Shown here in pieces: positions 1 through 18,750 of a stretch of DNA of 23,775 nucleotides. The stretch is from a virus. Its lineage: Duplodnaviria; Heunggongvirae; Uroviricota; Caudoviricetes. The DNA lies in IMG/VR virus record IMGVR_UViG_2579779002_000006; one strand, 5' to 3'. Both the position numbers and the translations under genes were made by a program. How positions within the stretch are numbered: position 1 is the stretch's first letter; the number at the start of each line of letters is the position of its first letter. The notes below the pieces were generated by a model, which was given only the letters and a program-made list of their open reading frames with translations, was not told the origin of the DNA and made no database searches.

Positions 1-561
1 GGAACGCCGCCGTATCTGGCGTAAGCTGCATCTCGCCGTTGACAGTAAAACACATGAAATCATCTGTGCAGACCTGTCGCTGAACAACGTTACGGACTCA
101 GAGGCCTTCCCCGGGTTAATCCGGCAAACCCACCGGAAAATCAGGTCAGCCGCCGCCGATGGCGCTTACGATACCCGGCTATGTCACGATGAACTGCGGC
201 GTAAGAAAATCAGCGCGCTTATCCCTCCCCGAAAAGGTGCGGGCTATTGGCCCGGTGAATATGCAGACCGTAACCGTGCAGTGGCTAATCAGCGAATGAC
301 CGGGAGTAATGCGCGGTGGAAATGGACAACAGATTACAACCGTCGCTCGATAGCGGAAACGGCGATGTACCGGGTAAAACAGCTGTTCGGGGGTTCACTG
401 ACGCTGCGTGACTACGATGGTCAGGTTGCGGAGGCTATGGCCCTGGTACGAGCGCTGAACAAAATGACGAAAGCAGGTATGCCTGAAAGCGTGCGTATTG
501 CCTGAAAACACAACCCGCTACGGGGGAGACTTACCCGAAATCTGATTTATTCAACAAAGCC
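1..561 (+). mobile_element. IS903-group (IS5 family) insertion sequence, right-hand ~560 bp; the rest lies beyond the window start
   Basis: Positions 544-561 are the reverse complement of GGCTTTGTTGAATAAATC, which I recall as the IS903 terminal inverted repeat. An open frame runs from the window start to 505 ending ...LNKMTKAGMPESVRIA. The ydfI reading frame is broken exactly at the element end. Confidence 0.8.
2..505 (+). CDS. IS903-family DDE transposase, C-terminal ~168 aa (5' end outside window)
   Basis: Frame is open from position 2 with no upstream stop; the translation (ERRRIWRKLHLAVDSKTHEIICADLSLNNVTDSEAF...) contains the listed 74-aa ORF 281..505. Assignment to IS903 is from memory of the family. 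Confidence 0.8.
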   Translation, partial: ERRRIWRKLHLAVDSKTHEIICADLSLNNVTDSEAFPGLIRQTHRKIRSAAADGAYDTRLCHDELRRKKISALIPPRKGAGYWPGEYADRNRAVANQRMTGSNARWKWTTDYNRRSIAETAMYRVKQLFGGSLTLRDYDGQVAEAMALVRALNKMTKAGMPESVRIA

Positions 562-772
562 GTTGTAAATCGGCAATTTGCTGTTCGCCGCCGATTAAGT
601 TGACCTCATAATATCCCCAGTCACTGAAATGTTCCGTAGCAAGAATATCGGCATACACGCCCTGATGCGCACGGTGAAATGCACCAAAGCCTAAATGAAC
701 AATTCTTGGGGCCAGGTTATTACGATCATAAACAGGGAGTGTCGCTTTTGCTGATAACAAATTATTTCCCAT
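562..772 (-). pseudogene. ydfI: ydfI 5' fragment (mannitol-dehydrogenase-family oxidoreductase, N-terminal ~70 aa) truncated by the IS insertion
   Basis: ORF 551..772 starts [37 protein letters not shown], a mannitol-dehydrogenase-type N-terminal dinucleotide-binding segment, and ends ...ADLQ followed by RLC-stop read from the IS inverted repeat. Confidence 0.7.
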
Positions 773-860
773 AACAATTCCTTAAATATAAATATGGCAA
801 GCTATATGTTTTGTTATATGAATAAAAATCCCCTCTCCGGTAAGAGAAGGGATTAAGGGT

Positions 861-2144
861 TTACAGACTTCTGGAAGGTTGCGCAGCTCTTACAACACGC
901 GGTTGATCTTCCGCAGCGTCTTCCAGCGCACTTAAATCACGGTCTTTCACCTCTGGCATTTGCAGCGCAGAGATTAAACCAATCACTGAATATGCCATGA
1001 TCATAATGGCGATCGGATACCAGGATTCCGTCATGGTGCAGAAAATACCCGCCAGGATAGGACCAAAACCGGAAGCGATAAGACCACCAATTTCTTTAGA
1101 AATAGCCATCCGGGTAAAGCGGTTTTTACAGCCGAACATTTCTGCCATGGTAATGTTTTCCAGAGCAAATAATCCCAGCACCGCACAGTTATGAATCACA
1201 ATCAGTGCAACCATAATGGTGCTCGGGGCATAGCTTTTATCTACAATGATAGAAAGCATTGGCCATGCCAGCACAATCGCGGAGGTATTCATAATAATAT
1301 ACGGGATCCGGCGACCAATTTTATCGGATAACCAACCAAGGAACGGAATGGTCATAAAGCCGAGAATCGAACTGATCATCAATGCATCTGTTGGAATTGC
1401 TTTGTTAAACAATAACGTCTGCACTAAATAGCCTGCAAGGAAAGTCTGAATTAACCCGGAGTTACCCGCCTGACCAAAACGCAGCCCTGTTGCCAGCCAG
1501 AAGGATTTGCTCTGGAACATGCTACCAGCAGGTGCAGGTTTTGCTGTCGGTTGGTTACTGTCGTTAACCTTCTCAAAGACCGGGCTTTCTTTCAGATTCA
1601 TACGCAACCAGATAGCAAAGACCATCACGACAACGCTCGCCAGGAACGGTATACGCCATCCCCACGCCAGCAGTTCCTCTTTACTGAGAATGAAGAACAT
1701 AAAGGCCCAGATTGCCGTTGCGCTCAAGGTTCCGCAGTTAGTTCCCATAGCCACAAATGAGGAGATAATTCCGCGCTTACCTTTTGGCGCATATTCCGCC
1801 AGCATCGTACCGGCACCGGAAATTTCCGCACCTGCACCCAACCCCTGAATAATACGCAACGTCACCAGCAAGATGGGTGCAAAAACACCAATCTGTGCAT
1901 AGGTCGGTAACACACCAATTAAGGTGGTACAGATCCCCATCATGGTGATGGTAATAAAGAGCACTTTTTTACGCCCTATTCTGTCGCCCATTTTGCCGAA
2001 AATAAATGCTCCGACAATACGCGCCACATAACCTGCACCGTAGGTTCCCATTGCCAGAATTAACGCCATTGCCGTTGATGATTCAGGAAAAAATATTTCA
2101 TGAAACACTAACGCTGCGCCGAGCGAATATAACTGGAAATCCAT
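861..2144 (-). CDS. ydfJ: MFS family transporter (metabolite:H+ symporter type)
   Basis: 427-aa ORF with multiple hydrophobic spans and the MFS loop motif G-x-x-x-D-R-x-G-R-K (GKMGDRIGRKK). Length and N-terminus match my recollection of K-12 YdfJ, and ydfI lies next to it in the same orientation. Confidence 0.9.
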   Translation of the reverse strand: MDFQLYSLGAALVFHEIFFPESSTAMALILAMGTYGAGYVARIVGAFIFGKMGDRIGRKKVLFITITMMGICTTLIGVLPTYAQIGVFAPILLVTLRIIQGLGAGAEISGAGTMLAEYAPKGKRGIISSFVAMGTNCGTLSATAIWAFMFFILSKEELLAWGWRIPFLASVVVMVFAIWLRMNLKESPVFEKVNDSNQPTAKPAPAGSMFQSKSFWLATGLRFGQAGNSGLIQTFLAGYLVQTLLFNKAIPTDALMISSILGFMTIPFLGWLSDKIGRRIPYIIMNTSAIVLAWPMLSIIVDKSYAPSTIMVALIVIHNCAVLGLFALENITMAEMFGCKNRFTRMAISKEIGGLIASGFGPILAGIFCTMTESWYPIAIMIMAYSVIGLISALQMPEVKDRDLSALEDAAEDQPRVVRAAQPSRSL

Positions 2145-2746
2145 AATTCACAGGTGTTTTTTCCCATCCTGTGGTTTCCTTGGCGTTTTCTAGGTTTTTT
2201 CAGATAGTTGCATTTTTTAAAAAGCATCCTAAGTTCGATCTCAGTGTCTATCTGGGGCCTATTTCTGTCCCATATATGCCCCAAAAAAACTCCCCAACAG
2301 ATAAGTAGTTTTTTCATGGATTTATGCGTAAAATCAAGAACGGCTGGAAATCATTCAATACTCACACTATCGAAAAATTTACCAGCCAACCGCAGCACGT
2401 TCTTGCATAAGGCGTGTCTGCGGTTTTTCAACTATTCAGATACATCACTCCCATCACATTCATTCCTCCGCATCAAAGGCATATAGGCTATATCACCTTG
2501 ATATTTTTCTTTTTCAGATAAAAACTGTTATCTATGTATACTTTTAAACCCAATCCGTGTAGAGTCTCTGCATAAGATAGTTTGCAGTTGCCGCTTCAGC
2601 TTGCGCCATAACCGCCTGATTTTTGCTGCCACCTGTTAGCATTCCTGTATACCTGAAACGACAATGTTTATCTACGAACTTTAAGAACACCCAAGATAAA
2701 AATTGTCAACTATATCATATATAACACATTACTAATTCGAGGCTAT

Positions 2747-2860
2747 ATGAACAGCATACTGATAATCACTTCTCTCCTTATCATATTCAGCATTTTTAGT
2801 CATGCCCTAATAAAATTAGGGATTGGCATATCCAATAACCCAGACAAAACCGATGTATAA
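2747..2860 (+). CDS. Candidate small hydrophobic protein, 37 aa ([37 protein letters not shown])
   Basis: ATG preceded by GAGG about 5 nt upstream; about 25 hydrophobic residues then a polar tail. Below the cutoff of the supplied ORF track; translated by hand. No homology support. Confidence 0.2.
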
Positions 2861-2928
2861 GTCAACATATCCTGAATCAGACATACAATATCGCAATGAA
2901 AATCAATAATATTTTAAGGAATATCTTC

Positions 2929-3162
2929 ATGAAATCAAAAGACACCCTAAAGTGGTTCCCTGCGCAGCTTCCTGAAGTAAGAATTATCCTAGGGGATGCT
3001 GTAGTGGAAGTAGCAAAACAGGGAAGACCTATCAATACCAGAACATTGCTTGATTACATTGAAGGAAACATAAAGAAAAAATCATGGCTGGATAACAAAG
3101 AATTATTACAAACAGCGATATCAGTTCTTAAAGACAACCAAAATTTAAATGGTAAAATGTAA
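2929..3162 (+). CDS. ydfK: YdfK/YnaE-family prophage cold-shock-induced protein (77 aa)
   Basis: Internal Met of ORF 2896..3162 (MKSKDTLKWFPAQLPEVRIILGDAVVEVAKQGRP...) with AAGGA 8 nt upstream; the 2896 ATG has no Shine-Dalgarno. 77 aa matches my recollection of K-12 YdfK, which sits next to pinQ. Confidence 0.8.
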   Translation: MKSKDTLKWFPAQLPEVRIILGDAVVEVAKQGRPINTRTLLDYIEGNIKKKSWLDNKELLQTAISVLKDNQNLNGKM

Positions 3163-3478
3163 TATAATAAACTTACTTTTTTATCATTTTTCCACTTTAA
3201 CAACATTTTGCTCCACTTTTCCACGACCAAACAACTTAAAATCTGGTTAAAATAACACGAAACACTATTCTTCTTCCTTGAGTCCGCCCGGAACTCGAAA
3301 AACAAACCGAGTTAAAGCCATTTTTCACAAAATCGATTTTGGGTCTCACCAAGATTACGGGGTTGCATACGCATTCGTTTATTTTCGAACGTGTACATAC
3401 AAATATGCACAAAAATAATCAAAATTATTTTCTGCGATGCATTATGATATGAACACCAATTTCGTATAGAGTCTCACT

Positions 3479-4069
3479 ATGTCTCGAATTTTTGCTTACT
3501 GTCGGATATCAACGCTGGATCAGACCACCGAAAATCAACGCCGGGAAATCGAAAGTGCAGGTTTTAAAATCAAACCTCAGCAAATAATCGAAGAACACAT
3601 TAGCGGCTCAGCAGCAACCAGTGAGCGTCCTAGTTTTAACCGGTTGCTTGCTCGCCTGAAATGTGGTGATCAATTGATTGTGACAAAACTGGATCGCCTT
3701 GGTTGTAATGCAATGGATATCAGGAAAACAGTGGAACAACTGACCGAAACAGGTATCAGAGTGCATTGCTTAGCATTGGGGGGCATTGACTTGACCAGTC
3801 CAACAGGAAAAATGATGATGCAAGTAATTTCAGCAGTTGCTGAATTTGAACGAGACCTTTTACTTGAACGCACTCATTCCGGGATAGTAAGAGCCCGCGG
3901 CGCAGGGAAACGTTTTGGTCGACCACCTGTGTTAAATGAAGAACAGAAACAGGTGGTATTCGAACGAATTAAGTCAGGTGTAAGTATAAGTGCCATTGCC
4001 CGGGAATTCAAAACCTCGCGGCAAACCATTTTAAGAGCCAAAGCAAAACTTCAGACACCTGACATATAA
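3479..4069 (+). CDS. pinQ: Serine recombinase, DNA invertase Pin (Gin/Hin/Cin family)
   Basis: 196 aa; N-terminal catalytic motif YCRISTLDQ (serine nucleophile), C-terminal helix-turn-helix; same length and sequence as I recall for K-12 PinQ; adjacent to tfa/stf as in Qin, Rac and e14. Confidence 0.92.
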
Positions 4070-4166
4070 AAAATAATCTCGGTGTGAGATGCTTTACGTC
4101 TTCCAAGCCCCCTTCCTTGCCGTAAATGGAAAGATACATCTAATTAAAGAATTTATATGTTTTACC

Positions 4167-4742
4167 CTACGGCAGTGCTGGCCATTCAATATCCTGTGCA
4201 GTTGACGTATCAACACGGTTCAGCAATACCCGATACTTTTTCCATGCTTCCAGCAACGAGATTTCTTCCTCCGTTGCAATTTCCAGATCTGCAGCATCCT
4301 GAAGCGGAGCAATATGCTCACTGGCTACCTGCATCAGGTTGTTTTTTGTTTCTTCCGCCTCCCGGATCCGGAACAGTTTTTCTGCTTCCGTATCCTTCAC
4401 CCAGGCTGTGCCGTTCCACTTCTGAAACTCCCCTTCCGGCGATAACCAGGTAACATTTTTCGGTAACGGACCGAGTTCAGAAATAAATAACGCGTCGCCG
4501 GAAGCCACGTCATAAACCGTTTTACCCCGATGATCTTCAACGAGATGCCACGATGACTCATCACTGTTGAAAACAGCCACGAAGCCAGCCGGAATATCTG
4601 GCGGTGCAATATCGGTACTGTTTGCTGGCAGACCTGTATGAGGCGGAATATATGCATCACCTTCACCAATAAATTCATTAGTTCCGGCCAGCAGATTATA
4701 AATTGTTATGGTCCGTGGTTGTTCACTCATTCTGAATGCCAT
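4167..4742 (-). CDS. tfaQ: Tail fibre assembly protein Tfa
   Basis: 191 aa, [44 protein letters not shown]... closely matches lambda Tfa as I recall it; start overlaps the stf stop (ATGA). Confidence 0.9.
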
Positions 4743-7700
4743 TATGCAAGCCTCACAATATAGTTAAATGCGATGTTTTTGACGGTGTTTTCCGCGTTAC
4801 CAGCAGCGTTAACGGTGATGGTGTGTCCATGTGAGCCAATCGCAACGGAGTGCGTATGAGCACCAATACCGACAGTATGTGCGTGTGCACCTGCGCTTGC
4901 AGCAGTACCCGATACAGAGTGCGTATGAGCGCCTGCAGAAGAAGTGTTAACACTGTATTTAGAATAATCAGGTGATCCACTTCCCGGAGCACCACTGGAA
5001 CCACCTGAAACAAATGTCATCGAATGGGTATGTGCACCGGCTGAAGCAGCCGTACCGCTAACACTATGGGTATGTGCACCAGTGTTATTCGTGGATTTAG
5101 TGCCGTAATCAAACGATGATGTGGTTTTCGTCCCCAAATCCGTACTGGATGCGCTGGCGCTGTGGGTGTGCGATTTAATGCCGTCCTGTTCCTGAGACAA
5201 TACGGCACGACCACTGGCGGGCTTGCCCTTAATCGTCCAGCCACGCATATCAGGAATAACGCCTGACGGATAAGCCACTGCAAGTTTCGGGTATGCAGAT
5301 TTGTCAAAAGTCTGCCCCTGCATCAGGGCATAGCCAGACGGAACGGTATCTGATGGCCACGGGATTGGTGCGCCGACTGGGTAGCTTTCTGGTGGAAGAT
5401 TTTTCGAGGTATAAACTTCTGCCCAGTCATCCTCAAAACCATAACCGTCTCTTGAAGAACGGTAGAACAGACCACCATTTCTGTAATGCGCCTTCATCTG
5501 CAATGTCCGGCAACTTCCGACTCCGGTATAGAAGTTAACCAGAATATAGCTGTCGCCAGAGCGGGTGACATTGTAAGCGCCTGATTCGGCATTCCAGGGA
5601 ACGGCTCCATCCGAATCCGCATAAGCCCCCGTCGAACGTCGGGCAAATGCACCAATATTTTCCGGCGTGAGGTTAATATCCGCCGAGCCATCAAACTTAA
5701 CACCGTTAATTTTTGGGTCTGCCGCAAGTTTCGTCGCGGTATCGGCGTTCCCCTTCAGTGCCCCGGTGATCCCATCAGTAACAGACAACGGACCTGAAAT
5801 AGTCCCTCCAGTTGTTGACAGCGCTCCAATATCTGATGGTGTAGGTTTCTGATGTGAGCTATACATCGTATAAACAACACCATCGGTAACGCTGGAAGGC
5901 TTACTCGCTGAATATGTTAGCGAGGTATAAATAGAAACTGACGCATTTGTAGTACAATCCCAATGGATATTTACACTCGTCGCATAATTGCCAATCTCAA
6001 CGTAAATATCATATATATCGCCGGATGTGTTGATCCAGGCGAAATTCGTTAATCCGACGGCTGTACGCTTCCACAAAGCTCCGGTAATCCCTTTGGGGTT
6101 TCCATTGCCTGCTCGTAGAACCAGTTCAGATATACCTGCCTGTTGAGGTGCCCCCACGTTAAATCCAGCGCCACCAATCAATGCGATGTAAACGATGGAA
6201 CTCGCTTGTGGCATGGTAACCGTTGCCAGTTTGAACCACCCTGCCCCGCCAGAGAAAGAGATCGTTACTGAATTTAAAGTGCCAATATCTTTCGGTGTTA
6301 ATGTTATATCCGCAGTCAGTGCTTTCCCGTTAACTTTTCGGTTAGATGGTACCCTGCCATTCGCATTGTCATTCGCTGCTTTAACTGCCTTCGGTGTCGC
6401 GGCAAGCGTTTCAGATGTGCTGTTGGTTGCACTGCTGAGCTGTACTATCCCCTTTTTCGTCGTGCTCGCATCCTCAAGCGCCACGGCGGATGCAATATCC
6501 TCTGCCCGTTTTGCCGCTGTCTCGGCGCGCGTTGCCGCGGATTCCGCCGTACTTTTGCTCTGAGCTGCCGCCGTCGCACTGCCAGCTGCCTCTGTCGCCT
6601 TCGTGGATGCCGTCGTGGCGCTGCCCTTTGCTGCTGACGCCTGTCTGGTCGCCTCATCTTTTGAAGCAGACGCAGATGATGCCGATGACGCCGCTGAACT
6701 GGCTGACGATGCGGCTGCCGCCTTAGAGGAAGCAGCATTGTCTGCTGAAGTCTTTGCATTTGTTTCAGAGGTTTTTGCTGCAGAAGCAGACCTCGCTGCT
6801 GCAGTGGCTTGCTCAGTGGCTTTGCCAGCCTTCGTTGTGGCTGTTGAAGCGGATGATGCGGCGCTTTCTGCCGATTTTCCGGCGGCGGTGGCACTGGCTG
6901 AGGCCTGCCCGGCACTTGTTGACGCGGCACTGGCAGATAATGCAGCCGCTGTTTTTGAACCTGCCGCAGTTGAGGCGCTCTGTCCCGCTGCTGTTTCAGA
7001 AGACTTAGCGTTCGTCTCGGACGTTTTTGCCGCCTTCGCGGAATTTCCTGCCGCCGTTGCCGAGGAAGCTGCACTACTGGCACTTGATGATGCATTCGTT
7101 TCTGAAGATTTCGCTGCCTCTTTTGAGGCCGCCGCACCCCGTGCCGAGGTGGCAGCTTCTGACGCCTTCGTGGTCGCTGTGGATGCAGAAGTGGCTGCCG
7201 ATTTTTGTGATGCTGCGGCATTCGTTTCTGACGTTTTCGCGGCACTGGCGCTGGTAGCTGCCGCGCTTTTTGATGACTCTGCAGCAGCAGCACTTTTTGA
7301 TGCCTCAGAGGCTTTTGCTGATGCCGTTCCTGCGCTGGAAAAAGCCTCCTGAGCCGACGTCGCAGCCTGTCCGGCTGACGTGCTGGCTGCACGTGCTGAG
7401 CCTGCAGCATCAGTCGCATGGGTTGCCGCCTCACGGGCTGATGTGCTGGCATCGCCGGCTGACTTCTTCGCGGCTGCCGTGTTCTGTGCCACTGCGGACG
7501 CGTTACGCGCCACCTCTTCCACCATCTGCTCAAAGCGGCGCAGTGCCTCCGGTCGGACATCATCCTCCGTCATGGCACCGAGAAAATCATTCAGCGTACC
7601 TGGTCTGGAACCTTCATAGACGGTAATGGTCCCGGCATGTGAAGGCGGAAAACCTTCAACCAGCAGGGTGACGCTGTACTGACCATGCTCAACATCCATG

Positions 7701-7849
7701 CTGTAACGTCCGGCTTCATCCGGATTTTCAGAGGCCACCGTGTTCACCACCACCGTGCTGCTGGTTCGTCTGGCCTTCAGCACAATGGTGCAGTTCTGTA
7801 CTGGTTTTCCTGTGCCATCTTTAAGCACGCCAGAAATTTTTACTGTCAT
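4742..7849 (-). CDS. stf: Side tail fibre protein Stf (1035 aa)
   Basis: N-terminus [27 protein letters not shown]... and C-terminus ...[29 protein letters not shown] match lambda Stf; long Ala/Ser/Thr-rich low-complexity stretch; a central ~330 aa not recognisable to me as lambda. Confidence 0.9.
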
Positions 7850-7862
7850 ACTTTTCCACCAA

Positions 7863-7893
7863 TAAAAAAAGCCCGCAGCAGTGACGCCACGGG
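7863..7893 (-). terminator. Hairpin plus T-run (intrinsic-terminator-like) downstream of lom, immediately upstream of the stf RBS
   Basis: On the - strand: GCCCGTGGCGTCACTGCTGCGGGC followed by TTTTTTTATT. Confidence 0.45.
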
Positions 7894-8000
7894 CTTCAGG
7901 ACAGTGTAACTTTACGTTTCCTCAAACGCAGTTCACCCCATAAGGTGGATGAACCTGCGTATCATAACAATATTTACAGAAGATAAATCGGCGTCTGTTG

Positions 8001-8600
8001 TCAGAAACGGTATCCGATACCAACAATAAATGCATCCGTTCGCCAGTCGCCACTACCGGAACCTTCATAAGCAAGGTCAATGGTCACGGATTCGGTCGGG
8101 TTAAACTGCACGCCAGCCCCCCACGCCAGAGACGTGTTGCTGTGGCGACCGTCATCACTTCCGGTCAGCACATCGTGCGTTTTCCCCTTGTTGTCAGTTA
8201 CGCGGAGATAATCCCCGGAGAAAGTCGACACACGGCTGTAAGCCACACCCGCCATCGCATACGCGCTGAACCATTCATTCACGCGTACAGACGGCCCCGC
8301 CATCACGCTGAACCAGCGGTTACGCACGGAATCTTCATGCCAGCGGGTATCGCTGTAGCGCGTTTTTTGCTCATCCTCAGCATTGGCATAACTGAAGGAC
8401 GTAATCAGCCCCAGCGCGTCCGTAAACTCATAACGGTATTTCACGTTAATCCCGTTCAGATCATCACTACCGGGAACGTTCGTCGAGGCATGGAGATACC
8501 CCGCGCTCAGCGTGGACTGATGTTCTGCTGCACTCGCTGGCGTAGCAGCGGCGACCTGCCAGACTACTGCGGACAAAATAACAGCACATAATTTACGCAT
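8001..8600 (-). CDS. lom: Lom outer membrane protein (Ail/Lom family beta-barrel)
   Basis: 199 aa, N-terminal signal peptide, C-terminal ...IVGIGYRF; near-identical to lambda Lom over most of its length (EHQSTLSAGYLHA...NGINVKYRYEFTD...). Confidence 0.9.
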   Translation of the reverse strand: MRKLCAVILSAVVWQVAAATPASAAEHQSTLSAGYLHASTNVPGSDDLNGINVKYRYEFTDALGLITSFSYANAEDEQKTRYSDTRWHEDSVRNRWFSVMAGPSVRVNEWFSAYAMAGVAYSRVSTFSGDYLRVTDNKGKTHDVLTGSDDGRHSNTSLAWGAGVQFNPTESVTIDLAYEGSGSGDWRTDAFIVGIGYRF

Positions 8601-8623
8601 AATTACCTCTCGCTTTTCTGCAA

Positions 8624-8648
8624 TAAAAAAGGCGCCATTTCTGGCGCC
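8624..8648 (-). terminator. Intrinsic-terminator-like hairpin between J and lom
   Basis: On the - strand: GGCGCCAGAAATGGCGCC followed by TTTTTT, 25 nt upstream of the lom ATG. Confidence 0.5.
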
Positions 8649-8667
8649 CGTATCTGGGTTATAAAAT

Positions 8668-8914
8668 TCAGCTAATCGTGATGCCTGCAGTGGCTTTCTT
8701 CATCACCACAACCAGCAAATCGCTGATACTTGCTGTGGGATACCAGTTATTTACCAGCCATGCTGACACCGAAAACTCCAGTGTCATGTGACCGTGACCG
8801 GCAGGCATATCAATAACACCACTGTAAATCAGCGTATTATCCAGCGCGGTACGGTTATAAATTTCAGCACCGTTTTTCCGCACTATCAGACGGCATGAGG
8901 AGAAAAATATCAGT
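8668..8914 (-). pseudogene. J: J C-terminal segment in a different frame (receptor-binding end), separated from the main J frame by an apparent 1-nt indel
   Basis: Part of ORF 8668..9165: ...[12 protein letters not shown]...SGVIDMPAGHGHMTLEF...VVVMKKATAGITIS aligns with the lambda J C-terminus (LKVLMNGAVIYDG...RIVDMPAGRGNVILTF...VQVMVIKKQALGISVV). Confidence 0.6.
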
Positions 8915-11900
8915 ATGCTCTTTCTCATGTTTAGCGCCGCTGAATGCCACCGCCGGAATAACAATCTGCCGGTCAAACGGCTGATCGTCATAAACCCTGA
9001 CGGTAATGGTTCCTGATGGCCACCGCTCCGGTGCACGGGAGTCCCGGGGGAAAGCTTTGCCCACTGTTTTAACGAGATCGCCTTCAATCTGGTTCGCGGA
9101 CAATTTTCCCAGAACCCGACAGTTCTCGTTAATCGTGACGTTGTTGAGCGTCCCGGAGTTCGCATTCACGTTACCGCTGATATCGGCATTTTTCGCCGTC
9201 AGCCGCCCGTCCGGTGTCAGGGAAAATGCCGGAGGATTACCGCCGCTGGTAATGGTGGGAGCCGTCAGATATTTCAGGAACACTTCATTCATAAATATCT
9301 GATCGCCCTGACCAACAAACATCGGCTTTGTGTTGCCATTCGCAGGATTAATCATCGCAATCCTGTCTGCCGCCAGCAGCACCTGACTCTGCATTCCTGC
9401 TGGCGTATTCTCAATACCGGCACCGATACCCGCAATATAAAGGCGTCCGTCCTGCATCTGCTGCAGTTTCACGGCCCACATGCTGTTCAGGTTATTATTT
9501 GTATCAACCTGAACTTTCTGTATCTGCTGGATTGCCGCACTCTGATTTTCCAGTTTTTTATTGACGGTCTGCGTGATTTCATTGCTGACATTCGTAATGG
9601 ACGTCCTGATTTCAGCCAGGTCCGGCGCAAGCTGACCGTTATCAATCTGCGTCCACAGCTCCTGGGCCAGATGTGTTTTCCCGATTTCTCCTTTGAAAAA
9701 ATCCAGGTAACCTTCCGCATCATCGCTCGCCCGACCGACAGCCTCCACGAATGCCGATTTGCCAACAGTATTCACACTGCGGATATAAAAATAATAATCA
9801 TGGCCCGGTTTGATATTGATACTGGCAGCTATCCAGTACAGCGCCGAGCCAAGATAGCGGGCTGCGGTTTCAACCTGCCTGATATCCGCAATCCGCTTTT
9901 CCGAGAACCAGAACTCAAACTGTACCGTCGGGTCATAAACGGCAAGATGTGGCGTTGCGGTTATCTGAAAATAGCCCGGCGTCAGCTCAATCCGCGACGG
10001 TGCTGCCGGTGCGGCAATCCGGAAGGTGGTGGTGGCAGGTTCACCCTGCTGGCCATAGCTGTTTATCGCCCGCACCGTCAGGGTGTATTCCCCGAGCGGC
10101 AGGCCGCTGAAACGGTGCTCCGTGTCTGCGGTGATGGCGGTGGTCACCAGTCTGGCATCCGTTCCCTTACCACTGGTCAGGCGCAGACTGAAGCGCACAC
10201 CCTTCACCACCCGCGGCGTGTCCCATTTCGCCTGCGCCAGATACTGGCCGTCAGCTGCGCTCACCTCCACCGTCAGGTGCTGCACTGCCGGTGGGATGAC
10301 GCTGTTCAGGGAACCTGACTGCGGCTCAAAGCGGGCACCGTTATCCACGATGGCTTCTTTTTCCGGTACGTGCTGCACCGCCGTGATGGCAAAGGTGCCG
10401 TCCGTGTTTTCCCGGATGGAGACACAGCGGAACAGGCGACGGCGCAGTGACGGCAGGGAGAGTCCCCACACCCCGTATGTCTCCACACCATCAGGCAGGG
10501 TACTGACCTGTATCCGGTCCGGCGCGGGGTGTGCGGTGATGTCCACACTCACCGGCTTACCGCTGCCGTTAATCAGGTTCACCGCCGATGTACCTGTCTC
10601 CGGCAGGGTAACCTCACGGTCCAGCGTCAGGGTGCGGGTGGCAGCATAAATGGACAGGACACGTCCGCCGGTCAGGGTCCCGGCATAGTCATTATCACAG
10701 ATTTCAATAATGTCACCGGGTGTGTGCCGCAGCCCCTGAGACCCGAGCGTGAAATCCACCGTCTGCGTTTCCAGCAGTTCGGTCTTTATCACCCACAGTC
10801 CGGCACGGTGGGCCTGACCGCGGCTGGTACAGCCGAACGCGTCCATCTTCAGCAGGTTGCGTCCGTAGCGCAGTATGGCTTCCGGGTCTTCCACCAGTTC
10901 CGTGGAGGTCTGCCAGCCGTTCTGCGGGTCGGTGTAATTCACCTCCACCGCCGTGTGCCGGTCCTTCAGGGCACTGAAGCTGTAGCGGAATCCCACGCCG
11001 TTATCATCCACCACCACATCGCTGTTGGTGTACGGCCACACCACATCCGACGGGCGGTCCTGAACGAACGTCAGCGTCTGACCGTTCCATACCGGCATAC
11101 AGCGCATCGCAGAGCAGAAATCACTGAGAACGTCCCACGCCTTACGCTGTTGTGCCAGGTACGCATTAAAGGTCATCCGCGGCTCGGTCCCCCCGAAACC
11201 ATCCGGGACCGTCTGGTCGCAGTACTGCCCGATGGCATACAGCGCCCACTTGTCCACATCCGCCGCCCCCAGACGTTTTCCCATGCCGTAGCGCGGGTGA
11301 GTCAGCATGTCCCACAGGCACCAGGCCGGGTTGTTGCTGTATGCCGGTTTCAGACTGCCGTCCCAGATACCACTGTACGTGCGTTTTTCCGGGTCATAGT
11401 TTGACGGCACCTGGATGATGCGACCGCGGATATGGTAGTTCACCGTCATCTGCTGGCCGCCGAACTGCTCCGCATCCACCTGCAGCCCCACAATGGCCGT
11501 GTTCGGGTAGCACTGTTTCACATCGATGATTTCGGTGTATGACGACCACAGCGTCTTATTCTGCAGCTGGTCCGTGGTGCTGTCCGCCGTCTCCCTGACC
11601 ATCCGGATGTTAAAGGGCCGGGGAGGCAGATTATCCAGAATCACCGAGGCCAGGAACTGTGAGGTGGTCTTGCCGTTAATGGTGACGTCCTTTTCCGTCA
11701 CCCAGCGGCCATTACGCTGTAACTGAATCAGAATCCGGACAGAGGAAGGATTACGGTCGCCCTTTGACGTGGTCTGCACCAGTGACTGCACCCCGAAGGT
11801 AACCCGCAGGCGGTCAATGTTCGCGGACGTAATGGTGCGCGTCACCGGTTTTGCCTTCGTCACTTCCACGCCCAGTCCGGTTTCAGCTCCGGAGGACTCA

Positions 11901-12142
11901 AAGCCTTCCGGTGGTGTCTGCTCCTGCTCCCCGGCGCGCCAGACCGCCGTCACACCGTGTATCACGGGATTGCCGTCCGTGTCCGTCAGTGGGGTTTTGT
12001 TCACCAGAATACTCTGCAGTCCCTTCACCGGACCTTCTATCGGTCCCTCACCAATCGCATCAATCACACTCATCATCTGCGTGGATTTGAGATTATCCTT
12101 CGCCTCACGAGGCGTGTGTGCCTTACCGCCACCTTTTCCCAT
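8864..12142 (-). CDS. J: Tail tip / host specificity protein J, N-terminal 1092-aa reading frame (frame lost near 8903-8912)
   Basis: [22 protein letters not shown]... collinear with lambda J over more than 1000 aa; the last ~16 codons ([16 protein letters not shown]) do not match lambda. Confidence 0.9.
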
Positions 12143-12248
12143 ACAGCCTTCCCCTGAATAAATTAACCGCCACTTGCCATTCCGTACAGAAGTCGGATAT
12201 CCTTCGCCCGAAAAGCATGAAACACATTTCTGCCATGCTAAAGAGAAA

Positions 12249-12280
12249 CCCCGGTATCAGCAGATACCGGGGTTTTCTTT
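12249..12280. terminator. Strong bidirectional hairpin (9-bp stem CCCCGGTAT/ATACCGGGG, 6-nt loop) with T-rich flanks, in the I-J spacer
   Basis: + strand: AAACCCCGGTATCAGCAGATACCGGGGTTTTCTTT; the - strand has TTTCTCTTT after the stem. Confidence 0.5.
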
Positions 12281-12484
12281 CATGCCCACCGATAATCCTG
12301 TTGGTTAAAACCGGTAATGGCATAAAAATTCTGAATATCTTCACATTTTCACACACTGACTGTGGCGCTTATAATTTCGCTGCGTTAGTGTTTTTTTGCC
12401 CGAGTAACAAAAACAACTCCTTAACATTGATCTTCATTTGTCTGTCCCCACAGCTCCGCGATCACTGCGGGATTTTTTTATGTT

Positions 12485-13165
12485 TTATCCCTGTCGCCCG
12501 ATAACCACGACCGTTCCGCCCCCGCCTTCATCACGGGTGCTGATGTCCTGGGATATACGGCGGGAGCCAACCAGCATTTCCCCGTAAGGCACCGGCATCG
12601 GGTTCCCCTGGGCAATCATGTTATCCAGCGAGGAAAAGTACGTGTTCTGTTTACCGTTATCCGTGCTTTTGTACTCCGGTGTTTTTGCCTTCGGGGCCAG
12701 CATCTGGGCCACACCGCCCAGTATCATGCTGGCCCCCAGTGAAAACAGCATCGTGGTGGCAGAAAAACCGCCGGCTGCCAGGGCTGTACCCCATAACGCC
12801 ATCGAGCCTCCGGCAGTGAAGAAAGAGCCCACGATGGCTGCCGCCCCCAGTACAATCTGCAGTCCACCCTTTCCGGCCCCGGCCAGTCGCGGCACAATGT
12901 GGATGACCGTTCCCTCACCCAGCTGTTCGTGAAGACGGGCATACACCGCCTCCGGTGCCGTGTCATCACCGGCAATACGTATCTGGTACCAGCCTTCGTT
13001 CATCTGACGGCGAAAGCCCGGCATCTGCATCGACAGGGCGCGAATGGCTTCCGCTGCCGTGTTCACATACAGGCTGAGGCGGCGGCCAAATCGTTGCAAA
13101 TCCCCGTGAAGGCAGATGCGTGCCAGTGGCGGTGACGCCAGACAGAATGCGTTCGTCGTTGCCAT
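12485..13165 (-). CDS. I: Tail assembly protein I
   Basis: 226 aa; ...RICLHGDLQRFGRR...IVLGAAAIVGSFFTAGG...KQNTYFSSLDNM... matches lambda gpI; 5' end overlaps K by ~100 nt, as in lambda. Confidence 0.9.
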   Translation of the reverse strand: MATTNAFCLASPPLARICLHGDLQRFGRRLSLYVNTAAEAIRALSMQMPGFRRQMNEGWYQIRIAGDDTAPEAVYARLHEQLGEGTVIHIVPRLAGAGKGGLQIVLGAAAIVGSFFTAGGSMALWGTALAAGGFSATTMLFSLGASMILGGVAQMLAPKAKTPEYKSTDNGKQNTYFSSLDNMIAQGNPMPVPYGEMLVGSRRISQDISTRDEGGGGTVVVIGRQG

Positions 13166-13806
13166 TTTTCGGAATACCTCTCCCGTTTACTCAGTTGTTC
13201 AGGCAGATGGTGAAGCAGCTCACCGTTGCCGCAGTAAATGGCGGCATGGTTCGGTACCGAAGCACCAAAGCAGCACAGCAGAATATCGCCCGCCTGTGCA
13301 GAGGACAGGGGCACCCGGTAAAAGCCGGTGACCGCCATATTGTCCAGGTAAAGGTTCTGACCGTTGCGCCACCAGTCATCCTCGCGATGAAAATCCGGCA
13401 TTTCAGTCCCCGCCAGATGATAAGCATCCCGGAACAGCGTGTAACAGTCCGTCACCCCGTGCTCAAAGCGCCGTCCTGTCAGATGTGGCACACAGCGGAA
13501 TTTGTGAATGTCACCCCGGCAGACCAGCCACCAGGGCAGTGCGCTTTTTATCTGCAGCCGCCGGTCAGCCTCGCTCAGCCAGGGCAGCCCACCGGGATGA
13601 CTGTGGACCAGTGCCACAATCTCCCCCTGCATCTCTGCCCGCAGCCAGTCTTCCGGTGCGATACGAAAATACGCCTCCGGCTCTGCGGAAATATTCACAC
13701 AAGGGATATACCGCTCCCCCTCCGGCGTGCTTATCACGAAGCCGCACGACTCCGCAGGCGCACACCGCCGGGCATGTGCCAGAATCGCTGATTCAGTCTG
13801 TGTCAT
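13063..13806 (-). CDS. K: Tail assembly protein K (JAB/MPN plus NlpC/P60-like)
   Basis: Internal Met of ORF 13063..14067 (MTQTESAILAHARRCAPAESCGFV...), matching the lambda gpK N-terminus; JAMM motif HSHPGG...SEAD present. Confidence 0.9.
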   Translation of the reverse strand: MTQTESAILAHARRCAPAESCGFVISTPEGERYIPCVNISAEPEAYFRIAPEDWLRAEMQGEIVALVHSHPGGLPWLSEADRRLQIKSALPWWLVCRGDIHKFRCVPHLTGRRFEHGVTDCYTLFRDAYHLAGTEMPDFHREDDWWRNGQNLYLDNMAVTGFYRVPLSSAQAGDILLCCFGASVPNHAAIYCGNGELLHHLPEQLSKRERYSEKWQRRTHSVWRHRHWHASAFTGICNDLAAASACM

Positions 13807-13816
13807 AAACCGGGAT

Positions 13817-14515
13817 TTACTGCGAAAGTTTATTAATGGAAAGGAAACCGCCAAAATTGCCGACATTCCTGCGCAGTTCACACCCGCGCATGCACTTGCT
13901 GCATCTGTCCTTACGGATATCCGTGGTGGGGTTGTCGAACTCATCCGCCACCGCAGGACCGTTATACCCGCATTCATCTCCCCGGTAATCCCACATACAG
14001 GTGTTCGCCAGCATGATGCGACCGGGAAACAGCGCCCCGTCCGTCTCGGTCGGTGTGGCCAGCACAAACGAGGCCGTCATGGCTGTCAGCTGCGACATCT
14101 GCTCCACCACCCAGCGGTCACTCAGCTCCTGCTCCGGGTCCGCCGACGGATTGCCCGCAACGAAATTCACCGCATCCAGAAAACGGGCATACACCCGGCG
14201 GCGGACCACCGTGGCCCCCACCAGACTCTGCAGGTCCTCCGCCATCCCGATGACAAGGCCAAACAGATTGGACACCGTCAGCGACGGGCGGGCACTGCTG
14301 CCCCGGCCGTTCATCTCAAAGCCGCTGCCGTCAATCGGGTATGCCTCATACTTACGCCCCTGCCAGGTGACCGGCTCCCCTTTTTCATTCAGCTCATTAC
14401 AGAAAAAATACCGCTCACCGCCCTGTACCATCAGGTCGATTTCCCAGAGTACCACCCGCGGTGACTGCTCTGATTTAACCGACTCGTTCAGACTTTCTTC
14501 GTGAATATCCTGCAT
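13817..14515 (-). CDS. L: Minor tail protein L
   Basis: 232 aa, MQDIHEESLNE...VVLWEIDL...GERYFFCNE...NVGNFGGFLSINKLSQ; same length as, and near-collinear with, lambda gpL. Confidence 0.92.
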   Translation of the reverse strand: MQDIHEESLNESVKSEQSPRVVLWEIDLMVQGGERYFFCNELNEKGEPVTWQGRKYEAYPIDGSGFEMNGRGSSARPSLTVSNLFGLVIGMAEDLQSLVGATVVRRRVYARFLDAVNFVAGNPSADPEQELSDRWVVEQMSQLTAMTASFVLATPTETDGALFPGRIMLANTCMWDYRGDECGYNGPAVADEFDNPTTDIRKDRCSKCMRGCELRRNVGNFGGFLSINKLSQ

Positions 14516-14856
14516 CAGTTCACCACCTGCTCAATCGTACAACTGAAATCACTGTACCTGGCGTTATCTGTGACGCTCCACTCCCGGCATACCACCCTCA
14601 CCGTCCGGTTATGTTTCGGCGGTCGCCACAAAAAGGCACGGTAACCACCATGCCACGATAAAAACTCTTCCAGCCATCGCCGGGTCGCCTCATCCGTCAC
14701 CCGGAACACCGCCTGAAACGTCTTCAGTCGGGCATTAAGTCCCGTCGGGCGGCGCTGTTCATAACCGTCACCAAACCGTACCCTCGCCACCGACGGTTTC
14801 TCACTCACCTGCATCCCTTCACGCGGGACCAGATGCAGCGTTTTTATCTCAGCCAC
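14515..14856 (-). CDS. M: Minor tail protein M
   Basis: 113 aa; ...VRFGDGYEQRRPTGLNA...FLWRPP...EQVVN resembles lambda gpM; stop overlaps the L start. Confidence 0.9.
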   Translation of the reverse strand: MAEIKTLHLVPREGMQVSEKPSVARVRFGDGYEQRRPTGLNARLKTFQAVFRVTDEATRRWLEEFLSWHGGYRAFLWRPPKHNRTVRVVCREWSVTDNARYSDFSCTIEQVVN

Positions 14857-15943
14857 TCAGCATTCCTCCGTCACGTCGCATGGACAGCATCACCGCCTGC
14901 ACCCGCTGGTCAATCAGTTGCACAAGGCTGCCCGCAGCTTCCGGCCCTATCTGGCCATTAGTCCCGTCATTCTGAATGGCGATATGGTAGACCGGGGAAT
15001 ACACCAGACCTGCACTGCCGTTCATACTGCCCACCGCTCGCACACCCAGCGAGCCATCCGCCGCCCGGGTCAGGGGCATAATGGCTTCAGGACCGGCCTC
15101 CCCCATCAGTCCCGCCCCTTTTGCAAAGGCAAAGTACGTGGGCGTATCCACAATACTGTTGCTGTACGCACTCAGGTTTGCCGAGGTATACACCCCGCCT
15201 TTTGCATTGGCCACCGCACCGCCCAGCCAGCTACCAATACTGCCGATAAATCCTCCCGCTCCGGACATACTGTTTGCCGCCGTCTTGATCCCGTTGACAA
15301 TCGCGGCATTCATAAGAACTTTTGATATTTCCTGCAGCACTGATGAGGCCCAGCTGCGCCATTCCACTTTATTTCCGTTCAGCATCTCCGTGATGTTATT
15401 CACCATCCCTGAGATACCCTCCGTCGCCAGCTGTGCTGCCTGTGAGGCGTAATCGGACGCATTATCCACCCAGTTACTGAATCCCTCCTGCAGCCCTTTC
15501 TGCCAGTCCGCACGCTGCACATCCGATTCGGCATAAAAGGCTTCCTGCTCTTTCAGACGTTCACTCAGATACTGCGCGTTCTGTGCCAGAGCCTGTCTGT
15601 AAAAATCCTCACTGATATCCCCGGTCTGATACTGAGACTGAAGGTCCGCATCCTTCTGGCGGAAACTGTCGCGGATCTGCTGCAACTCCCGCATGCGTTC
15701 ACGGAGCCGCTCTCCCTGCCCGTACCCCAGCAGTTCCGCTTCATTTGATGCACGCGCAGCCACATTATCATTCTTCAGGGTCTCTTCCCGGGACCGCAAC
15801 TGCTCCCGGATTTTTTGCTGGTCAATCAGGGCCGCATTGCGCAGCAGTTCCTGCTTCTGCATCTCCGTCAGGGTTTTCAGTTCGCCCTGCGCAGTCTGGT
15901 ATTTCAGCTTCGCCAGCTCTGTATTCTGCCCCGGGATTTGGGT
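14849..15943 (-). CDS. H: Tail tape measure protein, C-terminal segment in a shifted frame (open from about 15943; listed ORF begins at internal Met 15862)
   Basis: C-terminus ...HIAIQNDGTNGQIGPEAAGSLVQLIDQRVQAVMLSMRRDGGMLSG resembles the lambda gpH C-terminus (...NNDGTNGQIGPAALKAVYDMARK...MRDGGLFSG); the two frames overlap over ~15907-15943. Confidence 0.8.
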   Translation of the reverse strand, partial: TQIPGQNTELAKLKYQTAQGELKTLTEMQKQELLRNAALIDQQKIREQLRSREETLKNDNVAARASNEAELLGYGQGERLRERMRELQQIRDSFRQKDADLQSQYQTGDISEDFYRQALAQNAQYLSERLKEQEAFYAESDVQRADWQKGLQEGFSNWVDNASDYASQAAQLATEGISGMVNNITEMLNGNKVEWRSWASSVLQEISKVLMNAAIVNGIKTAANSMSGAGGFIGSIGSWLGGAVANAKGGVYTSANLSAYSNSIVDTPTYFAFAKGAGLMGEAGPEAIMPLTRAADGSLGVRAVGSMNGSAGLVYSPVYHIAIQNDGTNGQIGPEAAGSLVQLIDQRVQAVMLSMRRDGGMLSG

Positions 15944-18009
15944 TTATTCGCCTCGTTATTGCGCCAGGCTTCCAGGGCATTACTGATATAACGTTGTCTC
16001 GCCTCCTGATACGGTTCACCCACAAAACCGAGGTCATCCGCCGCATACCCCAGCCGGACACGCTCTTTTTCTTCCCCTTTCAGTCTGGACAGGGCCAGCT
16101 CACGCTCTGTTTTTGTCAGGGCACTCTGCTGTTTATCATCCAGAGTGGCCTGTGGCAGCCGTAACGGCACATTCACCAGTCCCTGCCGCTGCTGAAGCAG
16201 TTCATTACCCAGCCCCAGCAGACGGTTGAATTCCGTATGCTGACCGTTCATAACCAGCATGGACTGGTACACCTTATTCTGCTCTGCCGCCTGCTGACGA
16301 ATTAACGCCACACGACGGTCTTCCAGCCCGGCAAGCACATCCTGAATGGACTGCGCTTTTTCCTGCATCTGTGCCAGACGGGACTGCTCAACGGCAAGCT
16401 GCTCTGTTGCCTGAGAAAGCCCTTCCGTCACGGTCTTCACCGATGTCAGATGGTTTATCATGAATCCGTCACCGGTTGTCCAGCCAGGGTTAGCCAGAAC
16501 ATACTGATATCCAGCGATTTTTTCCTGCAGGGATTTCACCCGGCTGGCCTGTTCATCAATCAGCCGGTTCTGCTCTGCCAGCGCCGCCCGTGTTCGTCCT
16601 TCATTATCTGAGGCTTCAGGCAAAGACATTGACGGCGTTTTATGCGCGATTTCATCTATCGTCAGTGCATACTGGCGCGCTGACTCCCTGGCCTGCTCCT
16701 GATTCTGGTACAGCGTATACCATGCTGCTGCCCCCAGCATCACCAGTCCGGGTACGCCACCAACCAGTCCCAACGCACCAGTCATCAGACGTGAGCCCAC
16801 CGCCGTTGTACTGTTCAGCGCATTCTGGGCTGCGGTTCTGGCAGCAATATTTCTGTTCAGGCGTTCCTGTGTGGCCGCCAGACGGGCTTCTGCAGCAATC
16901 TGCATCTCCGTCCCGCGGGCTGCCGCCACAGCCTGCTGTGCACGGTACACGGCTGCCCTTGCCCGCGCCGTGGCAATCTGCGTCCCCCTGAGCTGTGCTT
17001 CCGCCAGTGCCACTTCATTACGTGCTGCCGTCACAAGTCCTGCCGTGGCAGACACCGCTCCGGAGGCCATATTGCCAAAGTACCGGGCAACCCCGACGGC
17101 AACCAGCGCCCCCGCGGCTGTTGCCACATTATCAATATTACCGGCAACACCGTTCAGCACGCCGGAGAGCGTTTTCGTCGCTCCGCTGGCTTCATTCGCG
17201 CCACCCACCCAGGCCATAAAGGCGTTTTCCACCTTTGTGATCCCGTCAGAGACCGTTTCCGGCATGGCGGCATATTCATCACGCAATACCCCCAGCTGGC
17301 TGATTAACGCAGGAACGACTTTATCCGCCGTCAGTTTGCCGTCGTCCGCCATCGCCTTAAGGTCTTTACGGGCCACGCCCATACCCGCAGCCAGTGCACG
17401 TACGATCCGGTCTCCGCTTTCATTGACCGAATTAAATTCCTCACCGCGTAACACACCCTGTGCCAGCGCCTGGCTGAACTGGGTGATCACCGAGCCCGCC
17501 TCTGCCGTACTGGCACCGGAGATTTTCAGCCCCGTGGAAATGGCCTCCGTCACCTTCAGCACATCATCAGCACTGTAACCATATTCACGCATTGAGGCTG
17601 CCGAGCGGGCAAACAGGGCCGCATTATCTGAAAATGCCGTGCCCGTCCGCTGGCTGATATCCATCAGCACTTTCTGTGATGACGAAAATTCATCGGATGA
17701 CTGCGACGCCTGTTTCAGTCGGGCATTCACGGAACTCCATTCATCGGCCAGAGAAATCAGGTGTCCGGTGGCAAAGGCCCCTGCAAATGCCCCCGCCGTT
17801 CCGGCAGCTGAAGCGCGGATTTCCGTCAACTGGCTGTTCAGCTCAGCCAGGGCGCGTCGCTGCTCCCGGGCGACTGCGGCAGCCTGACGCCCGCCATTCT
17901 GCAGGGTCCGGTAATATTCACTGCCCATGCGGGAAGCCCGCTGGATCTCCGACTGGAATGACTGCGAATTTGCCGAAATTTTGATAATCAGTTCACGTAA
18001 CGTCGCCAT
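15904..18009 (-). CDS. H: Tail tape measure protein, N-terminal 701-aa reading frame
   Basis: Long helical, Ala/Gln-rich ORF at the tape-measure position (after G/T, before M); GGAG-type RBS before the ATG; frame stops at 15904. Confidence 0.85.
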   Translation of the reverse strand: MATLRELIIKISANSQSFQSEIQRASRMGSEYYRTLQNGGRQAAAVAREQRRALAELNSQLTEIRASAAGTAGAFAGAFATGHLISLADEWSSVNARLKQASQSSDEFSSSQKVLMDISQRTGTAFSDNAALFARSAASMREYGYSADDVLKVTEAISTGLKISGASTAEAGSVITQFSQALAQGVLRGEEFNSVNESGDRIVRALAAGMGVARKDLKAMADDGKLTADKVVPALISQLGVLRDEYAAMPETVSDGITKVENAFMAWVGGANEASGATKTLSGVLNGVAGNIDNVATAAGALVAVGVARYFGNMASGAVSATAGLVTAARNEVALAEAQLRGTQIATARARAAVYRAQQAVAAARGTEMQIAAEARLAATQERLNRNIAARTAAQNALNSTTAVGSRLMTGALGLVGGVPGLVMLGAAAWYTLYQNQEQARESARQYALTIDEIAHKTPSMSLPEASDNEGRTRAALAEQNRLIDEQASRVKSLQEKIAGYQYVLANPGWTTGDGFMINHLTSVKTVTEGLSQATEQLAVEQSRLAQMQEKAQSIQDVLAGLEDRRVALIRQQAAEQNKVYQSMLVMNGQHTEFNRLLGLGNELLQQRQGLVNVPLRLPQATLDDKQQSALTKTERELALSRLKGEEKERVRLGYAADDLGFVGEPYQEARQRYISNALEAWRNNEANKPKSRGRIQSWRS

Positions 18010-18026
18010 TCACCTTTCTCCGGGCG

Positions 18027-18048
18027 TAAAAAAACCGCCTCAGCGGTT
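18027..18048 (-). terminator. Hairpin plus T-run between T stop and the tape-measure RBS (attenuator or terminator-like)
   Basis: On the - strand: AACCGCTGAGGCGGTT followed by TTTTT, then GGAGAAAGGTGA-ATG. Confidence 0.35.
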
Positions 18049-18056
18049 CTCATCAT

Positions 18057-18371
18057 TCATGACTGTGCTGCAAAGCTCAGCGCGTCTTCCAGCGCCGCAA
18101 ACGGATCCACCTCCGGCTTATCCTCATCCTCGCCCCAGCAGAGCATGGCGTCCTTCAGTGCAACATTCATCCCCTGTGCCCCAAAAACCGCTTTCACGAT
18201 CTGTGCATTACGGATATCCCCGCGCTCATCACCCAGCGGGGATACCCTGTCGAACTCCATCCACATCATCGCCTCGCTCACACTCAGGCTGTGCCGCAGT
18301 TCGGATAAGGTGCGCCCCAGACGGAGCGCAAGTCGCATCAGAAAGCGAATTTCCGGGCGGGCTACTTTTTT
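18057..18371 (-). CDS. T: Tail assembly chaperone frameshift extension (gpT analogue; expressed as a G-T fusion by -1 frameshifting)
   Basis: The -1 frame is open from the slippery site through ORF 18057..18338 (...KKVARPEIRFLMRLALRLGRT...); no independent RBS. Confidence 0.7.
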   Translation of the reverse strand, partial: KKVARPEIRFLMRLALRLGRTLSELRHSLSVSEAMMWMEFDRVSPLGDERGDIRNAQIVKAVFGAQGMNVALKDAMLCWGEDEDKPEVDPFAALEDALSFAAQS

Positions 18372-18736
18372 CTGGCCGACTCTGCATCAGCGATCAGTTC
18401 CAGTGCCTGACGCAGCAACCGGGCATGTACCGGACCATAGACGGCCAGCACCTGCTCACGGTCGTCCGGAGCGAACACCCGCTGCAGATCCGTATCACAC
18501 AGGACATCGCAGAACAGCGTCACATCCGCTTCCAGGTTACGGCGGGTTTTCGCCACCACCGACAGGGTATCGTCATCCTCTCCATCACCATTGAGCACTT
18601 CCTGCCACAGATACCAGGCCTCTGCCGAAGGCTCCCGCAGCACCACGCTGACATTACCCCATTCCGGCACCTTCACCGTTTTATGACGAAACCCTGACAG
18701 TCTGGCCAGCGCCAGCGTTTTCAGATCCTTTTTCAT
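18362..18736 (-). CDS. G: Tail assembly chaperone (gpG analogue)
   Basis: ORF 18362..18784; I prefer the internal start MKKDLKTLALARLSGF... at 18736 because the 18784 start would overlap V by 34 nt. Acidic small protein immediately after the major tail gene; ends ...ARKK at the slippery site. Confidence 0.75.
   Translation of the reverse strand: MKKDLKTLALARLSGFRHKTVKVPEWGNVSVVLREPSAEAWYLWQEVLNGDGEDDDTLSVVAKTRRNLEADVTLFCDVLCDTDLQRVFAPDDREQVLAVYGPVHARLLRQALELIADAESARKK
18365..18371 (-). promoter_or_regulatory. Programmed -1 ribosomal frameshift heptamer A_AAA_AAG at the 3' end of G
   Basis: - strand reads GCC AGA AAA AAG TAG; the heptamer A AAA AAG is the same slippery sequence used by E. 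coli dnaX; the -1 frame continues into T. Confidence 0.6.
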
Positions 18737-18750
18737 GATGACCCATCCAC

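Follow-up and report, generated by a model that had tools for sequence, protein, structure and literature searches.

A frameshift in gene J of a defective lambdoid prophage of Escherichia coli, very probably inherited within one lineage

The stretch of DNA analyzed here (IMG/VR record IMGVR_UViG_2579779002_000006, 23,775 nucleotides (nt), hereafter the window) is the whole of contig JJLV01000174.1 from the commensal E. coli 1-182-04_S3, to which it is 100% identical, and contains gene J of a lambdoid prophage, the gene for the tip attachment or host specificity protein gpJ. The J reading frame is broken near its 3' end. Is the break an error of sequencing or assembly, a site at which the ribosome or the genome can switch frames, a truncation retained for the benefit of the host, or plain inherited damage? 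We are strongly convinced of the last: gene J of this defective lambdoid prophage has very probably become a pseudogene through a genuine, vertically inherited frameshift.

The frame break and the receptor-binding domain

Gene J occupies 12142..8668 on the minus strand and is 3475 nt long, that is 3474 plus one, and its parts are as follows.

8864..12142, minus strand: 5' part of gpJ as now translated, 1092 codons and a TGA stop at 8866..8864.
8903..8907, minus strand: the lesion, an A5 run on the plus strand and T5 on the coding strand, at codon 1080, net +1 nt.
8867..8902, minus strand: out-of-frame tail in the main frame after the lesion, 12 codons, followed by that TGA.
8668..8901, minus strand: displaced 3' end of J, 77 codons (8901..8671, residues 1081-1157 of the intact protein) and a TGA stop at 8670..8668.

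We compared window positions 8600-9300 with 5,426 complete E. coli genomes and with GenBank phages, and obtained thousands of matches. In the best of these, all 701 bases of the query align to 700 bases of the subject with 99.7% identity, and the 701 nt around the site are identical to the intact J sequence of VT1-Sakai, O157:H7 PV15-279 and strain 102651 apart from a single change. Intact relatives read GAT ATT TAC TCC TCA TGC (D-I-Y-S-S-C), the window GAT ATT TTT C TCC TCA TGC. The change is thus a combined deletion and insertion, TAC to TTTC on the coding strand (A>TT; T>AA at 8903-8904 on the plus strand), and the T5 run arose through it, not through a change in the length of an earlier homopolymer. 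The closest complete genome is that of strain 102651, whose prophage at the ompW locus encodes an intact gpJ of 1157 amino acids (aa). Against this genome A>TT is the sole indel in 10,871 aligned columns, which contain 19 substitutions, and outside the lesion 3472 of 3474 J positions are identical, leaving two other differences. Across the 16.4 kb compared, none of the 79 other homopolymer runs of at least 5 bases differs in length from its counterpart in the relative.

The ancestor had GAT ATT TAC TCC (Asp-Ile-Tyr1080-Ser); in this lineage TT took the place of the A of TAC, and translation now continues out of frame for 12 codons to the TGA, yielding a 1092-aa product that lacks residues 1081-1157. 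The replacement may have occurred as one event or, equally possibly, in two steps, a substitution followed by slippage, with no intermediate observed: the in-frame Phe form (ATT TTC) was not found in IMG/VR, and the best matches in the complete genomes agree at 61 of 63 positions, none at 62 of 63. We also considered gene conversion from a paralogous J; the nearest complete genome, that of strain 102651, offers no apparent donor, as its Qin-locus J gene does not align across window 8752-9044 by blastn.

The protein as now translated comprises authentic J for residues 1-1079, Phe at 1080 where relatives have Tyr, and out-of-frame sequence at 1081-1092. Strains 102651 and TUM14664 have an intact gpJ of 1157 aa, with which this 5' part shares 99.9% identity. 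When one T is deleted in silico, the result is a single 1157-aa open reading frame (ORF) containing all six gpJ Pfam domains in order and end to end (FNIII-A_GpJ, Phage-tail_3, Ig_J, Ig_J_second, Phage_Tail_Tip, Ig_GpJ_C). The N-terminal hub region is present (PF24801, E=2e-40, residues 86-207; PF13550, E=5e-38, residues 331-492), as are two Ig-like domains and the tail tip fibre domain (PF24421, PF24489 and PF09327, each with E<1e-30). The C-terminal receptor-binding domain (RBD) PF12421 is matched at residues 1027-1157 after the T has been removed, and codon 1080 lies inside it. The lesion costs this domain 77 of its 131 residues (1081-1157), and the displaced 3' segment encodes the distal 59% of the Ig-like fold; GenBank gene calls place a 71-aa ORF there. 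No complete RBD is present in frame, given that the frame breaks at 1080 and the product ends at 1092, and for this reason the locus is a J pseudogene and not a functional member of the lambda gpJ family.

The last 170 residues of the repaired protein align end to end with solved gpJ structures, best with 'A8 gpJ 713' (9wca, E=6e-62) and also with lambda gpJ (8xcj/8iyk, E ∼1e-40), in which Tyr1054 stands opposite codon 1080. Host-range mutations of lambda fall in the last ∼10% of J. The Ig-like RBD of lambda inserts four loops into LamB, and its own opening, relayed along the central fibre, causes the tail to open (PMC11101478). A product cut off in the middle of this domain would be expected neither to fold the RBD nor to bind a receptor, and tails built with it would not adsorb.

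An earlier, sequence-only reading of this DNA had J losing its frame before the receptor-binding end, at an A5/T5 run near 8903-8912, with 16 unrelated codons closing the main frame and the C-terminal ∼77 residues encoded in another. The loss of frame and the 77 displaced residues are borne out, and the two frames are no product of chance ORFs, given the six domains of the repaired protein and the otherwise identical 701 nt. The break sits within the domain rather than ahead of it, the unrelated codons number 12 (8902..8867), and the switch maps to one A5 run at 8903-8907, with nothing relevant between it and 8912.

An allele confined to one lineage

An exact-sequence look-up of the 1092-aa product returned three GenBank assemblies, all of E. 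coli 1-182-04_S3. They represent separate colonies from a single stool specimen of a Tanzanian child, sequenced on an Illumina HiSeq 2000 with 100-bp reads and assembled with MaSuRCA (PMC6222053). Look-ups with the tape measure fragment and the tail fibre protein added contigs SNEE01000089, JBRTPH010000056, JBRTKG010000082, ABRNIE010000062 and JAAPFY010000061, all of which carry the identical GATATTTTTCTCC allele. The exact J allele is hence found in eight draft assemblies (JJLV, the window itself, JJLS, JJLT, SNEE01, JBRTPH01, JBRTKG01, ABRNIE01 and JAAPFY01) from five different whole-genome shotgun accession series. They differ mutually by a few private single-nucleotide polymorphisms (SNPs), from which it follows that the contigs represent distinct strains of one lineage. 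JBRTPH and JBRTKG have C>T nine bases 3' of the T5 run on the coding strand, and a D499Y replacement in J (window 10648, codon 499) is private to the 1-182-04_S3 colonies. The contig of this colony alone has a synonymous GGT>GGG at window 17779, within the tape measure gene, and the three 1-182-04_S3 colonies are therefore not strictly identical.

None of the 5,426 complete E. coli genomes has the allele: their 4,126 homologous J places, in 1,836 records, all have the in-frame ancestral sequence (best match, 61 of 63 positions). Exact-pattern scans of GTDB representative genomes, IMG/VR and the JGI metagenomes did not find it either. Because the allele is missing from these other collections, we take the change to be a lineage-specific mutation, neither recurrent nor conserved.

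Could the extra base nevertheless be a miscall in a homopolymer, with the real gene intact? The site is a 5-base run, taking out one base gives the full 1157-aa frame, and no complete genome has the allele, all of which an artefact would explain. A random base-calling error is ruled out, however, because the allele is shared by assemblies from the five accession series that differ by SNPs elsewhere. The source data are Illumina reads, with their low rate of indel errors; the difference from intact alleles is A>TT and not a change in run length, in 10.9 kb that contain no other single-base indel; and an in-frame form with T4 is missing from IMG/VR and from the complete genomes. We consider a sequencing or assembly artefact extremely improbable. 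The comparison with J genes of related prophages that the sequence-only reading had proposed as a check finds the relatives intact, with TAC at codon 1080 where the window has TTTC. It had also held that a one-base correction restoring a continuous J frame would refute a real lesion; the correction does restore the 1157-aa frame, but the extra base is real, as the ancestral sequence is TTTAC and not TTTTC.

The T5 tract might instead still allow some full-length J to be made, either by +1 slippage at U UUU C (tRNA-Phe moving from UUU to UUC) or as a contingency tract. At UUU C, tRNA-Phe is able to pair again in the +1 frame, and CUC, the codon that follows in the zero frame, is fairly rare in E. 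coli; reversion from T5 to T4 would yield full-length J with Y1080F. The site is not conserved, however, being in-frame and ancestral at every homologous place counted above and missing from the other collections. No T4 revertant occurs among the eight assemblies, and a run of five T is too short to slip efficiently. A full-length J would moreover be of no use in these genomes, whose tape measure gene has irreversibly lost 82 bp (described below). We give next to no credence to recoding or switching at this site, and just as little to the more specific idea that slippage or reversion at T5-C keeps up a low-level or switchable supply of full-length J (Y1080F), which could for instance be rescued by recombination into lambdoid phages resident in the same cell that have this tail module.

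A probable hybrid prophage with further lesions

The inherited frameshift in J is one of several defects in this prophage, which lie in or next to the following features.

14849..18009, minus strand: tape measure gene, 3161 nt (3243 in relatives minus 82), now a 701-aa product at 18009..15904 and a 337-aa ORF at 15862..14849.
15929..15933, minus strand: junction at which the tape measure gene has lost 82 bp out of frame, the retained copy of a CGGGG direct repeat.
12485..13066, minus strand: tail assembly protein I, intact in the window, 193 aa.
8630..8649, minus strand: terminator-like hairpin (GGGCGCC-AGAAAT-GGCGCC followed by T6), directly downstream of the ancestral J stop and the same as in relatives.
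8001..8600, minus strand: Lom-family outer membrane protein gene, downstream of J, intact.
4742..7849, minus strand: side tail fibre gene, 1035 aa, a chimera whose 3' part corresponds to the Qin-locus prophage and whose 5' part corresponds to the ompW-locus prophage of strain 102651, with the crossover within 5063-5623.
4167..4742, minus strand: tfaQ tail fibre assembly gene, intact in the window.

The tape measure gene has lost 82 bp between two CGGGG direct repeats, which shifts its frame and which, being such a deletion, cannot be a homopolymer error; the lesion that the sequence-only reading had suspected in this gene is thus real. Tail assembly is impossible in this prophage in any case, because of this deletion. 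All assemblies that have the J allele and in which the tape measure gene is visible share the deletion, as do several gut metagenome scaffolds, which stop short of the J site. The contiguous deletion junction is absent from the complete E. coli genomes, and every contig that reaches J codon 1080 has both lesions. Two more genes are interrupted in parts of the lineage: gene I by CAG>TAG (w12550 G>A) in the JBRTPH and JBRTKG sub-lineage, which truncates the protein to 172 aa, and tfaQ by CAG>TAG (w4331 G>A) in JAAPFY01, which leaves 137 aa. With several independent inactivating lesions (J, tape measure, and the sub-lineage stops in gene I and tfaQ), the element has the makings of a defective, or cryptic, prophage. 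Between the two possibilities raised by the sequence-only reading, a decaying prophage or homopolymer errors, the former is clearly favoured by the eight assemblies, the Illumina data and the tape measure deletion, and the latter is contradicted by the nature of the A>TT change.

The truncated J, or the remaining tail module, might have been kept for a host function, the truncation being adaptive. Consistent with this, the 1080-codon J frame is still open in all eight assemblies, and the allele has persisted into five accession series. A long open frame is, however, what a recent lesion would leave; neighbouring tail genes are gaining independent nonsense mutations, the tape measure gene is broken, and D499Y is a radical missense change in J itself. 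Nor does the module resemble any known tailocin or domesticated-tail arrangement. We regard adaptive retention as highly improbable.

Inherited decay fits the structure of the prophage. Over window positions 1-5623 the sequence agrees to 99.86% with the Qin locus of strain 102651 (IS903B in ydfI, then ydfJ', ydfK, pinQ and tfaQ), and over positions 5063-23775 it agrees to 99.2-99.8% with the ompW-locus prophage of the same strain. The same junction, with the 1035-aa chimeric fibre next to tfaQ-pinQ-ydfK-ydfJ', is found in independent assemblies, and so the hybrid is not a misassembly. In 102651 and TUM14664 the Qin/ydfJ-locus and ompW-locus prophages lie ∼300 kb apart in inverted orientation. 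Together with the arrangement in the window this implies, as the most likely origin, a ∼300-kb inversion between two resident prophages. Such a hybrid, whose end from the Qin locus meets a tail and head module from the ompW locus inside the side tail fibre gene, should fail to excise normally, and its morphogenesis genes would then drift without selection.

Four points weigh against this account of the locus. The J call is founded on agreement between assemblies and not on read pile-ups. The inversion is deduced from comparison with two complete genomes, neither of which belongs to this lineage. The predicted loss of folding and adsorption derives from homology to lambda gpJ. Finally, no assembly has the J lesion or the tape measure lesion by itself, which would have shown their order.

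Several further observations concern the same contig. It begins inside a copy of IS903B inserted in ydfI (mannitol dehydrogenase family; window 1-∼558); genomes without this copy match the window from ∼559 only, and sister contigs of other assemblies begin near this limit, at w456 and w568. Directly adjacent to tfaQ and to where the tail fibre gene ends (4167-7849, minus strand) lies the serine invertase gene pinQ (3479-4069, plus strand), as in invertible tail-fibre segments of the Pin/Gin type. In 18000-18800 no GGGAAAG motif was found that could serve the G/GT tail chaperone genes as a slippery site of the lambda type.

The portal region on the minus strand consists of two ORFs, 22383-23747 (454 aa) and 21001-22386 (461 aa), which overlap by 4 nt. 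In 102651 and TUM14664 the Prokaryotic Genome Annotation Pipeline (PGAP) merges both into a single portal pseudogene labelled 'frameshifted'. Many records of Stx-converting phages also annotate two coding sequences in this arrangement, and for this reason it is probably normal, or an issue of annotation, and not a lesion. The 461-aa ORF has no Pfam match; in the PHROG 2271 'portal protein' profile, which has 859 positions, it corresponds to the C-terminal half. Within it, at 21467-22161, lies a 162-nt tandem repeat of 4.3 copies that are 96% identical (54-aa units). Its copy number varies among strains, the ORF being 461 aa long in the window versus 353 aa in JBRTPH01 and the metagenome scaffolds.

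As to what follows for annotation, the deposited 1092-aa 'phage tail family protein' and the 71-aa fragment should be treated as a single J pseudogene instead of two separate proteins, and surveys of prophages or of host range should class this prophage as defective. The locus offers a small, clean example of stepwise prophage decay, from the hybrid to the shared J and tape measure lesions and then to the stops of sub-lineages, and the A>TT allele is a handy lineage marker. The finding has no bearing on open questions of tail-tip function or recoding.

Comparison with known gpJ proteins

The window J resembles lambda gpJ (PDB 8IYK, 8XCG, 8XCJ and 8XCK) in its hub, FNIII/Ig domains, tail tip fibre and C-terminal Ig-like RBD, and its last 170 residues correspond end to end to lambda J 962-1131. 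The gene order is also that of lambda and of the family (M-L-K-I-J-lom-stf-tfa, with the tape measure gene upstream). Unlike lambda gpJ, it is interrupted opposite Tyr1054, so that the equivalents of ∼78 C-terminal lambda residues are not in frame, and its RBD is of another specificity type, closer to 'A8 gpJ 713'. The intact gpJ of ompW-locus prophages (for example WP_440252808.1 in 102651, WP_109963259.1 in TUM14664, and the PPompW phages) has the same flanking genes and stands for the ancestral state of the window J; it has TAC (Tyr1080) and 1157 aa where the window has TTTC and 1092 aa.

Inactivated J genes in resident prophages have been annotated before, and the event described here is of an ordinary, well known kind. 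The J of VT1-Sakai/Sp15 (L001, 4069-7541) is recorded as a 'truncated protein by a mutation', and the Qin-locus gpJ of 102651 (L005, 20823-24221) as carrying an 'internal stop'. Both differ from the window J in that their lesions are independent and lie at other positions, whereas the window allele is limited to one lineage.

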